From Escherichia phage VTCCBPA_211: a stretch of DNA of 64,000 nt. Made by a program: the position numbers and the translations under genes. Positions 23,337 to 29,163 of the stretch are shown here, in pieces. Position 1 is the stretch's first letter; the number at the start of each line of letters is the position of its first letter. The notes under the pieces are model-generated. The model was given only the letters and a program-made list of their open reading frames with translations. It searched no databases and was not told the origin of the DNA. Location of the stretch: the sequence record PP989838.1. One strand, given 5' to 3'.

Positions 23337-24682
23337 GTGAGCAACCCGGACGCTCTTCCATTTTTGACAGAGATGACTGTCGCTGATATAATCTCTAAGC
23401 AAGCAAAGCACGGAGTGAGTTTCAACCGAAGAAATGCTCGGTGGTATGTTCACCTCCTTAAAGAGATTATTGTTAATATTGACAGAGAGTTGATTCCTCT
23501 CTTACCTAAGATGAGATTAGACGGCTCTACTTATATGAAGCCGTTTAAGAAGTCTGGAGCTTTACAGAAGTGGCCTCAAGCTTATTGTGATAGGGTTGGG
23601 CTGAAGAGAGAAGATATTGGTGGAGCTTTCACCTGTGTCGAATATGTAGACTTTGACCCATCGAAAGATGCACGAGTTAAAGAAGCTCTTATGGATGAGG
23701 GCTTTCTTCCTCCAGAGTTTAATGTATCTAAGAAGCCTTGGAATACTTTCGAAATTAAGAAAGATATGAGAAAGTATGGAACATACCAAGCATGGTATAC
23801 TGCTTGGATGCGAGGCAATGCTAAGCAGAAGCAGACAGCCGAGATGGTTGACGCTGATATTAAGAAGTTCTTAGAAAAGCATTTCAGGTTTAAAACTAAG
23901 AACTATATGAAGGCTTACGTATTTGGTTTGGGATTAAACCCTAATCGTCGTAATCCTGTAACGTTTGATGAGATTAAGAAAGCGCTAGCCACATCAAACA
24001 AGTGGCCTACAGCTCCTACAAACCTCGAGGAGACTCTTGAAGAAGGGTTAGGGGGTGAGCTAGGGAGTGTCGGAAGTTTGCTTAAGAGACGCGTTGTAGC
24101 GGCTCACAGGCTAGGTCTTATCAGTGGACTTATAGCAAAGGAACGCGAAGATGGTAAACTTTCGGCAGAAGCTAACAGCTGCGCTACGCCGACTTTTCGA
24201 TTCAAACATCGTATCGTGGTTAATATTCCCTCCCGTGGTCTGTTTGGTCACGAGTGTCGCAGTTTGTTTGAGTCTGACTATAACTCAGACAGTGATCACT
24301 CTCGTCCTTTCGTTATTACTAACGCTGTTCCTGATGGTTGTTATATACGAAAAGGTACTAACGTAATTTACGAGAAAGGTAAGCCGGGGAAGAAAGACAA
24401 ACCTGTAGGCGCTTACAAATATTACATACCCGCTGGTAAAGAAGTATTCTTAGGGTATGATGGTTCTGGACTTGAACTTCGTATGTTAGTGCATTATCTT
24501 GTGAAAGAGTGCCTTGACATGATGGAAGAAGCCAAAGCAGAGAACGATAAAATTAAGTATCTAAGGGCTGAGAAAGGTTTAGAGGCTGCTTATACTTATC
24601 GAGAGGTTCTTCTCTCAGGTGATATCCATTCCCACAACCAGAAACTAGCTGGCCTACCAACTAGAGATAATGCAAAGACGTT
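23337..24682 (+). CDS. DNA polymerase I family polymerase domain, exon 1
   Basis: Motif A LGYDGSGLELRML and start of motif B RDNAKTF, collinear with T7 DNA polymerase; GTG start with AAAGGAG SD. Confidence 0.75.
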
Positions 24683-27824: not shown

Positions 27825-28230
27825 AGAACCTGTAGTTTATAAAGACTCTATCAGAGATCAGTATAATGAGATGTTAAAGAAACAATCTGATTCTAATCTT
27901 CGTTATCAGAGGATAGTAGAACAAACTAACTTTAAAGGTTTACTTGAATGGTAACTTATATCCTTTACTTTTTAGCTTTCTTAGGAATAATCTTTTTATC
28001 TATTATTCTTGAATTTGGTTTAAGTAAGTTAGTTAATTATTTAGGTAATAAGTAATTATTATTCTTTTAAATAGAGAATCAAAGTCCCTAGGAGTCCCTA
28101 CAACCTAAATCAAGGATTCCTTAATTCTCTATTTTTATCTCGCAGGTGGCTCCTGCCCTTCGGTACTTGCAAGGGATTCTGTGAATTGCCCAATATACAA
28201 GCCTGCAATAACTTTATCAGCTATACAATA

Positions 28231-28239
28231 TATACATTA
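28231..28239 (-). promoter_or_regulatory. TAATGTATA motif in antisense orientation
   Basis: Reverse complement of TATACATTA; points away from the SSB-like gene toward the upstream plus-strand operon. Confidence 0.3.
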
Positions 28240-28302
28240 CTAGTGTGATATATCTACTACCAAAGATACTTATATTATATAGTACTCTTATCGGTATAAG
28301 CG

Positions 28303-28311
28303 TAATGTATA
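28303..28311 (+). promoter_or_regulatory. promoter motif TAATGTATA
   Basis: Exact motif in the 416-bp intergenic region, about 60 nt upstream of the ATG at 28371. Confidence 0.5.
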
Positions 28312-28370
28312 CTATACATAACCGCTCAAAGAGAGCAACAATCTTTCAAATTAAATAAGGAAATTAAAAT

Positions 28371-29117
28371 ATGTCTATGATTCCAACTATCGCAACTGCT
28401 TCCCGTAAATCCAACTACGATGTAATCCCTGATGGTGAGTACGAAGCACGTATCGTTCGTGTAGTAGGTTTGGGTGTTCACAATCGTGACCCTTGGATTG
28501 ACCCGAAGACCAAAGCAGTAACTCCTAAGAATCCGGCTTTCCGTATGGATTTAGCTTTCGAGCTGATTGGTGTTGATGCTACTGGTAAAGATTCCGATGG
28601 TAAGGCATTAGAACCACGTCCGGCTTGCCAGTTCAAGAGCTATGATGTAAACCCACGAGCTAAGAACTCTGGTATTCTTGATCTTTGCAAGATGATTGAC
28701 CCAAGTATTCAAGCACTGAAAGGTGATCTGTCTTGGTTCAAGGATGTTCTGTTAGGTCAGCCTGTTAACATTCTGGTTAACTCTTACACTAACAAAGCTG
28801 GTGAAGTTAAAAACTCCATCAAGACCATTTCTCCAATCCCAACCAAATATCGTGCAGCAGTTGGTGAAGCTCGTAGTCCTCTGGTATTCTTCGAACCATA
28901 TGCTGAAACCGACGAGAACGTAGCATCCTATCAACTGATGTTCCCGTTCCAGCGCAACCTGCTTACTCAAGCTAATGACGCTAAGAACATGCCTCTGGCT
29001 GGTCGTGAAATTACTCGTGCTTCTGAAACAGAGCAGAAAGAAGCTACTCCTTCAATCCCTACGATTGATAAAGAGCCTGCTTCTACTTACGAAGACGACA
29101 ACGATAGCCCATTCTAA
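28371..29117 (+). CDS. probable single-stranded DNA-binding protein (T7 gp2.5-like)
   Basis: Acidic C-terminal tail ending in Phe (YEDDNDSPF); flanked by a TAATGTATA motif and a strong terminator. Confidence 0.4.
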   Translation: MSMIPTIATASRKSNYDVIPDGEYEARIVRVVGLGVHNRDPWIDPKTKAVTPKNPAFRMDLAFELIGVDATGKDSDGKALEPRPACQFKSYDVNPRAKNSGILDLCKMIDPSIQALKGDLSWFKDVLLGQPVNILVNSYTNKAGEVKNSIKTISPIPTKYRAAVGEARSPLVFFEPYAETDENVASYQLMFPFQRNLLTQANDAKNMPLAGREITRASETEQKEATPSIPTIDKEPASTYEDDNDSPF

Positions 29118-29139: not shown

Positions 29140-29163
29140 AGCCACCTTCGGGTGGCTTTTTTC
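29140..29163 (+). terminator. rho-independent terminator
   Basis: AGCCACC-TTCG-GGTGGCT hairpin followed by TTTTTT. Confidence 0.7.

Follow-up and report, generated by a model that had tools for sequence, protein, structure and literature searches.

In the phage analyzed here, a probable second gp36-dependent promoter, which most likely belongs to the P68 (middle) class and apparently has not been described before, lies back to back with the known promoter of gene 40 and is read leftwards. The best explanation for the locus as a whole is that it represents the boundary between two middle-gene transcription units. The reading that best fits the comparative data, and to which we give an even chance, is that the leftward promoter would produce an antisense, non-coding RNA of ~160 nt that acts in cis at this operon boundary. 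The position of the 3′ end of the predicted RNA, its stability and its role in cis are the parts of this reading that we infer.

The window, i.e., the whole stretch of 64,000 nt of Escherichia phage VTCCBPA_211 (PP989838.1) that was analyzed, comes from a phiEco32-like phage (genus Kuravirus, subfamily Gordonclarkvirinae). The 3 kb around the locus are 95-99% identical to ~60 Escherichia and Shigella phages of Kuravirus and neighbouring genera of this subfamily, and phiEco32 itself shows 98.7% identity to the window across the studied region. The window is given in the opposite orientation to the GenBank record of phiEco32, its plus strand being the reverse complement. From left to right, gene 41 is followed by a 95-nt element that contains a hairpin and a T5 run, then by a swappable module of hairpins and finally by the two back-to-back promoters. 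An earlier note on this DNA, made from its letters alone, had described positions 27955-28370 as a 416-bp non-coding region. This extent had to be reduced, since 27948-28055 is the ORF of gene 41 and the real gap comprises 28056-28370 (315 bp). It had also been taken as the longest gap in the plus arm, which holds approximately: it is among the two longest, but when ORFs of at least 60 aa are considered, a second ORF-poor gap of the plus arm (6135-6552, devoid of a plus-strand ORF of this size) measures 418 bp versus 416 bp here.

Gene 41 (27948-28055, plus strand; the homologue of phi32_41) encodes a hydrophobic peptide of 35 aa, MVTYILYFLAFLGIIFLSIILEFGLSKLVNYLGNK, and is called a tiny membrane-protein gene. 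The gene starts with an ATG that overlaps the preceding stop codon; annotations of it exist in phiEco32 (phi32_41), WFI101126 and many relatives, and the peptide matches a PHROG family of its own (phrog_24970, E=2.7e-24). The ORF is open in 19 of the 30 sequences (17 full-length and 2 as a 25-aa version), among which the substitutions are conservative (I/L/V/F). The remaining 11 sequences do not carry gene 41, so that, judged from this distribution, the gene is dispensable. The A+T richness that had been noticed at 27955-28075 was borne out (81% A+T versus 57% in the whole window), and this stretch is gene 41, which is missing or replaced in many relatives. The gene that precedes the 95-nt element varies among the relatives: it may be gene 41, the phosphatase gene in a long form or an unrelated ORF.

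The middle and late promoters of phiEco32 have in common the element tAATGTAtA, which is read by the host RNA polymerase carrying gp36, and transcription begins 6-8 nt downstream of this motif (PMC4281155). In the P68 open complex, as resolved by cryo-EM, the AATGTA sequence occupies positions -14 to -9, and the C-terminal domain of gp36 contacts the G at -37 and the A at -34 (PMC12276001). The motif to which the earlier note had drawn attention, TAATGTATA, is indeed a promoter element, namely the published gp36-dependent -10-like motif of phiEco32 (PMC4331800, PMC4281155, PMC12276001), and therefore it is not new. The phage has the cognate factor: the ORF at 29671-30312 matches the sigma chain of PDB 9m7y (chain F) with E=1e-145 over the full 214 residues. 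Five exact copies of TAATGTATA are present in the 64-kb window, where 0.62 were expected, and five were reached in 1 out of 100 shuffles. Apart from the two copies at the locus, they correspond to P58 (21760, plus) and to two late promoters (37935 and 54816, both minus), and P68 (16868, plus) carries AAATGTATA instead of TAATGTATA. The secondary sources give six mapped gp36 promoters, those of genes 6, 13, 26, 40, 58 and 68 (PMC4331800; SU10 S2 table). The two late promoters also have a common AAGACCTA box ~17-18 nt upstream of TAATGTATA, which is absent from the middle promoters and is presumably a determinant of the late class. A perfect sigma-70 consensus promoter (TTGACA, 17 nt, TG-extended TATAAT) was observed in the middle-gene arm, at 23364-23392 (plus).

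The two copies of the motif at the locus are found on opposite strands, at 28303-28311 (plus) and 28231-28239 (minus), 72 nt apart from start to start, in good agreement with the ~70 bp given before. They had been said to face each other. However, the minus copy is on the left and reads leftwards, and the plus copy is on the right and reads rightwards, so that the arrangement is divergent. Both copies match tAATGTAtA exactly, and they form a perfect 10-nt inverted repeat, TATACATTAC / GTAATGTATA.

The plus copy had been assigned to an SSB-like gene, and it proved to be P40, a gp36-dependent middle promoter that is already known and precedes gene 40. This motif is listed upstream of gene 40 in PMC4331800, and the P40 entry of the SU10 S2 promoter table reads aagcgtaatgtatactatacataaccgctc... 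The -10-like element of P40 is invariant among the relatives and its predicted +1 is at ~28318; in the -35 region the A at -34 is present, and the G is one position off when compared with the P68 contact. Near the 5′ end of the P40 transcript a stem-loop (GCUC-AAAGA-GAGC, 28324-28336, plus) could be recognized, the stem of which shows compensatory changes in relatives (GUUCA/UGAAC, GUUC/GAAC and GUCC/GGAC), and which is followed by a conserved CAACAAUC. Gene 40 (phi32_40; 28371-29117, plus) encodes a 248-aa OB-fold protein with an acidic tail (...DDNDSPF), and both the OB-fold model and the tail suggest that the product is plausibly SSB-like. Directly after the gene there is a canonical terminator (AGCCACC-TTCG-GGTGGCT plus T6, 29140-29157), and hence P40, gene 40 and the terminator look like a largely self-contained, high-expression unit, which is positioned upstream of the sigma-factor gene.

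The minus copy (-10-like element at 28231-28239) can be extended to TAATGTATATA, which matches the full published motif tAATGTATAtA. A -35-like box, GGTAGTAGAT, is located 12 nt upstream of it (28252-28261, minus). The exact 10-mer GGTAGTAGAT has only 2 copies in the 64-kb window, and the other one is in P68, at the same spacing to the -10. The box places a G at -37 and an A at -34 (in the numbering of the structure paper), i.e., both bases that gp36 contacts in P68. The leftward copy thus has the same tAATGTATAtA element, the same -35 box and the same spacing as P68, but unlike the known gp36 middle promoters it points against the middle genes, is not followed by an ORF and is absent from the promoter lists of the secondary sources. 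No leftward promoter in this gap is given in the SU10 promoter table or in the phage 7-11 paper, where P40 alone appears, and no description of it was found in the phiEco32 literature, of which the mapped promoter lists are known to us via secondary sources. The core of the leftward promoter is flanked by a 12-nt inverted repeat, CTATACAATATA / TATATTATATAG (28221-28232 / 28271-28282, 92% complementary), which may be a chance occurrence in A+T-rich DNA.

The leftward promoter was then followed through the relatives. TAATGTATATA is identical in 23 out of 23 GenBank and IMG-VR genomes compared, and after the addition of metagenomic contigs it is kept in 29 of 30 distinct sequences. The exception is a metagenomic sequence (L038, ERZ1034915 contig) in which the leftward -10 reads TAATATATA, with a G-to-A change at the gp36-contacted position -11 in an otherwise intact locus. 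Either a natural down-mutation or a mistake in the assembly could explain it. Nucleotide diversity is 0 in the leftward -10, as against 0.29 in the spacer that separates the promoters. The leftward -10 and -35 boxes are retained where 120 bp are inserted between the promoters and across at least four swaps of the module. In distant metagenomic relatives, whose gp40 is 71-82% identical, the leftward -10 is TAATGAATA or GAATGTATT with the spacing shortened by 1 nt, and GGTAGT is retained at the -35. The earlier note had proposed that the minus copy drives transcription antisense into the phosphatase operon. The comparison gives strong support to the leftward promoter, and an antisense transcript is therefore likely, but the idea of a control that is specific for the phosphatase operon is weakened, because the upstream gene varies and the conserved element does not.

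The putative leftward transcript would carry a stem-loop (AUAGCU-GAUAA-AGUUAU, 28208-28224, minus) that begins exactly at the predicted +1 (28224) and is followed by a conserved UUGCA. Among ten sequence versions of this stem-loop 98.3% of the cells are paired and two pairs show compensatory changes, whereas controls in which the partner was slid gave 33-63% pairing. One pair alternates between G-C and G.U, which on the plus strand would be a C.A mismatch; hence, the alternation fits the minus strand only. In the metagenomic relatives with a gp40 of 71-82% identity a hairpin is found at the same place with wholly different stems (for instance, CAUC-AAAC-GAUG and CUCU-GAUAAAA-AGAG), and UUGCA always follows. 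Since the P40 leader also has a stem-loop early, both divergent transcripts would start with a small hairpin. Further along, positions 28161-28205 correspond to a hairpin module with at least four unrelated versions (A-D) among the relatives and a nucleotide diversity of 0.19. The variants occupy equivalent positions (in L005, L019, L020, L045, L046 and L051), each with its own hairpin potential, and by this comparison the variation is one of module swapping within the non-coding region. The 120-bp insertion between the two promoters is present in myPSH2311-type phages (L020 1389-1532) and also in L003 and L038-L042, and disturbs neither promoter. It encodes a basic plus-strand ORF of 47 aa (MKFNHKYAATEKARAYV...), the ATG of which overlaps the leftward -35 box. 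No promoter of its own was seen for this ORF, which would therefore need read-through across the invariant element.

The 95-nt element (28066-28160) is non-coding, nearly invariant and single-copy in the window, and always begins 10-35 nt past the stop codon of the preceding gene, which differs among the relatives. Of its 95 positions 89 are invariant, and its nucleotide diversity (0.018) is ~13 times lower than that of the third-codon positions of gp40 (0.241; the second positions have 0.045). When distant relatives with a gp40 down to 71% identical were included, at least 76 of 96 alignment columns remained invariant. Most of the element is occupied by a long hairpin (28069-28136), which had not been among the features listed before. 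Its arms, AAATAGAGAAT / ATTCTCTATTT (28069-28079 / 28124-28134), enclose a 44-nt interior; on the plus strand the stem is followed by TTTTT (TTTTTAT), and on the minus strand it is extended to 15 bp via G.U pairs. The 7-bp core of the stem (AGAGAAT/ATTCTCT) is invariant, and the outer 4 pairs decay without compensation. The interior holds two copies of AGTCCCTA (28083-28090 and 28093-28100, period 10 nt). They had been described as a tandem AGTCCCT repeat, and the two copies are there, but 2 nt (GG) separate them, so that the repeat is not strictly tandem. In one group of relatives it becomes AGTCCT twice with a period of 9 nt, a variant that is linked to the type of left flank. A small hairpin (AAGG-ATT-CCTT, 28112-28122) has nearly all the local variation in its loop (ATT, ATTT, GTTT, AAT, GATT), where almost all indels are also located. 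The arms of the GC hairpins that had been reported are also present, GCAGG/CCTGC at 28142-28146 / 28152-28156 and CCCTT/AAGGG at 28156-28160 / 28171-28175. In the former (GCAGG-TGGCT-CCTGC, 28142-28156) all cells are paired, the loop varies between G and T, and one compensatory change was detected (GCTGG/CCAGC in L045). Covariation inside the element is almost nil, with this one compensatory pair, and there is little variation to score. The element is therefore conserved as a sequence and not demonstrably as an RNA structure, and the plus strand or the DNA may be what this conservation serves.

A coding role for the gap found no support. There are stop codons in every frame of the element and no conserved minus-strand ORF at the locus. 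A 32-aa ORF with a TTG start (minus, 28110-28208) has 9 aa in phiEco32 and is frame-shifted or truncated in other variants, and most of its substitutions are non-synonymous, compensating a hairpin instead. Phage 4E8 has a 64-aa CDS annotated across the gap, for which other genomes give no support. No tRNA was found at the locus, and Rfam 15 gave no match above the gathering threshold there; in permissive mode the lowest E-values, 3.3 and 6.4, fell in the P40 leader. In E. coli genomes neither a match nor a long complementarity to the element was detected.

In the proposed mechanism, the leftward promoter would start transcription at ~28224 from the middle stage of infection, and the resulting non-coding RNA would open with a protective 5′ stem-loop. 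It would run on through the swappable module and the GC hairpin, and would end at, or be trimmed to, the long hairpin of the invariant element, which would give ~160 nt; some transcripts would read on as antisense to whichever gene lies upstream. The RNA would act in cis, either by formation of an RNA duplex and its cleavage by RNase III or by collision with incoming polymerases. Action in cis is most likely because of the exact complementarity to the 3′ end of the upstream operon mRNA, including its terminator-like hairpin. Conservation ends a few nt past the base of the long hairpin, which suggests a discrete unit of ~160 nt. With a stem-loop at +1 and a long hairpin towards its 3′ side, the predicted product would have the build of a stable RNA. 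The predicted fold of the minus strand is more stable than that of the plus strand (-45.8 versus -35.3 kcal/mol, with modest z-scores of -1.96 and -1.05), and this was so in 9 of the 9 variants folded, because the G.U pairs extend the long stem to its 15 bp; an A-to-G change in XT32 keeps the pair on the minus strand only. No canonical terminator was found on the minus strand, which after the long hairpin reads UUUAAAAG, without a U run. The strict invariance of the 3′ domain of the predicted RNA suggests that a protein or another RNA also recognizes it by its sequence. In a second, possible reading, the ~160-nt RNA would be a trans-acting small RNA of the phage whose invariant domain binds a host factor. 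A search for trans targets of the minus-strand element within the phage (both strands of the window) gave a best duplex energy of -42.3 kcal/mol versus -39.6 to -42.0 kcal/mol for four shuffled queries, i.e., no outlier, and BLAST of the element within the window returned chance 11-mers only. Nothing relevant was found in the phiEco32 literature searched on antisense RNA, small RNA or a transcriptome.

The main rival is that the element acts mainly on the plus strand, as a terminator, an RNase III processing site or a stabiliser of the 3′ end of the upstream operon, with the leftward promoter as an insulator only: leftward polymerases would collide with the read-through so that gene 40 depends on P40, and the RNA product would have no role. 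We consider this possible but rather unlikely. The element always lies 10-35 nt past the last upstream gene, whichever this is, TTTTTAT follows the hairpin on the plus strand, and no other terminator-like site precedes P40. A scan for intrinsic terminators found none in the gap, the long hairpin with its U5 being non-canonical on the plus strand. However, an A/U-rich hairpin with a 44-nt interior is unlike canonical terminators of the phage such as that at 29140-29157; a terminator would leave the invariant loops unexplained, the 47-aa ORF that some relatives have between the element and P40 would need read-through, and the covarying stem-loop at the leftward +1 argues that the RNA is kept. 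That the leftward copy is a chance or relic motif devoid of function is very improbable. The region is A+T-rich, one window shuffle in the 100 did give five copies of the 9-mer, and one natural variant has an altered -11 base, but the -10 and -35 boxes co-occur at the spacing of P68, and they are conserved amid variable flanks with a covarying hairpin at +1. Against the leftward RNA itself stand the six-promoter lists of the secondary sources, which have no leftward member, the distant clade with TAATGAATA and a spacing shorter by 1 nt, the metagenomic G-to-A change at -11, the lack of a canonical minus-strand terminator, the scarce covariation in the element and the modest z-scores.

Two further proposals consider the element as DNA. 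It could be a conserved linker for module exchange, i.e., a patch of homology for recombination between co-infecting phages, which would thereby exchange the flanking genes, with no function beyond the promoters and the terminator; the promoter-stem-loop cassettes of T4-type phages would be a parallel. This would account for the mosaic junctions on both sides of the element and inside it, where the left-half variant goes with the left flank and the right-half variant with the right one, and it would suit a neighbourhood of variable ORFs and HNH endonuclease genes. But the element is single-copy in each genome, and recombination alone would not fix 89 of 95 positions across genera in which the gp40 protein differs by up to 29%, which makes the linker improbable as an explanation. 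The earlier note had raised, as one of two candidate roles, an origin of replication by analogy with T7-like phages. In this proposal, the DNA would be opened or primed by transcription from the phage promoters, in the way of the T7 primary origin, with the invariant element as the site of replisome assembly, so that the element and the leftward gp36 promoter would be a T7- or ColE1-style origin on a sigma-appropriating phage. Phage-specific promoters do adjoin A+T-rich DNA here, an extreme sequence conservation with little covariation suits a DNA site, in one group of relatives both AGTC-containing direct repeats are altered in concert, and the SSB-like gene is next to the locus, which maps close to the genome centre (at ~47% of the phiEco32 record). 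However, the A+T-rich part is a gene, the seemingly dispensable gene 41, absent or replaced in many relatives, and not a non-coding stretch conserved with the promoters; the sequence immediately after the leftward promoter is a structured leader with RNA-type covariation, and the spacer between the promoters is variable and tolerates 120 bp of insertion. No DnaA box (TTATNCACA, up to 1 mismatch) was present in 27955-28370, and the window-wide count was at the chance level. The only direct repeats of the region are the two of 8 nt, whereas an iteron origin would have three or more. GC skew does not change at the locus; it flips at ~33 kb, where gene orientation flips, and since it follows gene orientation it is uninformative on the origin. 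No link to a mapped phiEco32 origin was found in the literature searched. Taken together, we regard an origin at this site as unlikely.

Returning to the reading that we prefer, the predicted leftward RNA can be compared with known phage systems. The gp36-dependent middle promoters of phiEco32 were reportedly mapped by Pavlova et al. in 2012, and of those compared here (P68, P58 and P40) the plus copy is P40 itself. The OOP RNA of phage lambda is a 77-nt antisense RNA that starts at promoter pO, overlaps the 3′ end of cII and leads to RNase III-dependent decay. As with OOP, a short, leftward, non-coding transcript would start just downstream of a rightward gene, be complementary to the 3′ end of its mRNA and lie at the edge of the replication-gene region. 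However, OOP has a sigma-70 promoter, a canonical terminator and one fixed target gene, whereas here the promoter would be that of a phage sigma factor, the RNA and its 3′ end are predicted ones, and the overlapped gene varies between relatives. In T7, the primary origin comprises two promoters, phi1.1A and phi1.1B, with 61 bp of A+T-rich non-coding DNA after them. The phage shares with T7 the presence of phage-specific promoters beside A+T-rich DNA and a T7-like replication set (primase/helicase, DNA polymerase, SSB-like protein and 5′-3′ exonuclease), but its promoters are divergent, its A+T-rich stretch is a gene and its leader contains GC and is structured. The PeSL cassettes of T4-type phages, described by Arbiol et al. 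in 2010, are said to be units of a promoter and a stem-loop that flank variable ORFs. The locus resembles them in having a conserved block of promoter and stem-loop bordered by variable small ORFs and mosaic junctions. Nevertheless, PeSLs are short, present in many copies and driven by host-type early promoters, whereas the block analyzed here is single-copy, has ~250 bp and carries middle promoters of the phage sigma factor.

phiEco32 is a model for the takeover of E. coli RNA polymerase by a phage sigma factor, and its promoter set is treated as six promoters, all of them along genes. A seventh, conserved, antisense promoter of the P68 class would, if true, add a layer of regulatory RNA, and nature would thereby have supplied a second promoter on which the -35 contacts of the 2025 cryo-EM structure could be tested. 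No codon position of the neighbouring gene 40, which looks essential, is as strongly conserved as the 95-nt block, and this points to a cis element or an RNA domain whose function is probably important. Phages of the phiEco32 type are under development for therapy, so that an unannotated regulatory element in the replication-gene cluster matters for their engineering.

The leftward motif and the 95-nt element were absent from Salmonella phage 7-11, GAP52, Privateer, LAh_8 and a metagenomic clade whose gp40 is 63-70% identical, and judged from these comparisons the cassette of the two is specific to the phiEco32 lineage. In those relatives the gaps before gene 40 measure 55-145 bp. The sister clade with a gp40 of 63-70% identity (L007-L009 ~2355-2500, L054 ~1356-1500) has a different conserved leader of 145 bp before the gene 40 homologue. 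This leader contains ...CTATATAATGGATAAAGCATATAGCTTAGCTTAGCTTTGATATGCTAGC..., and may represent a different promoter specificity combined with a structured leader.
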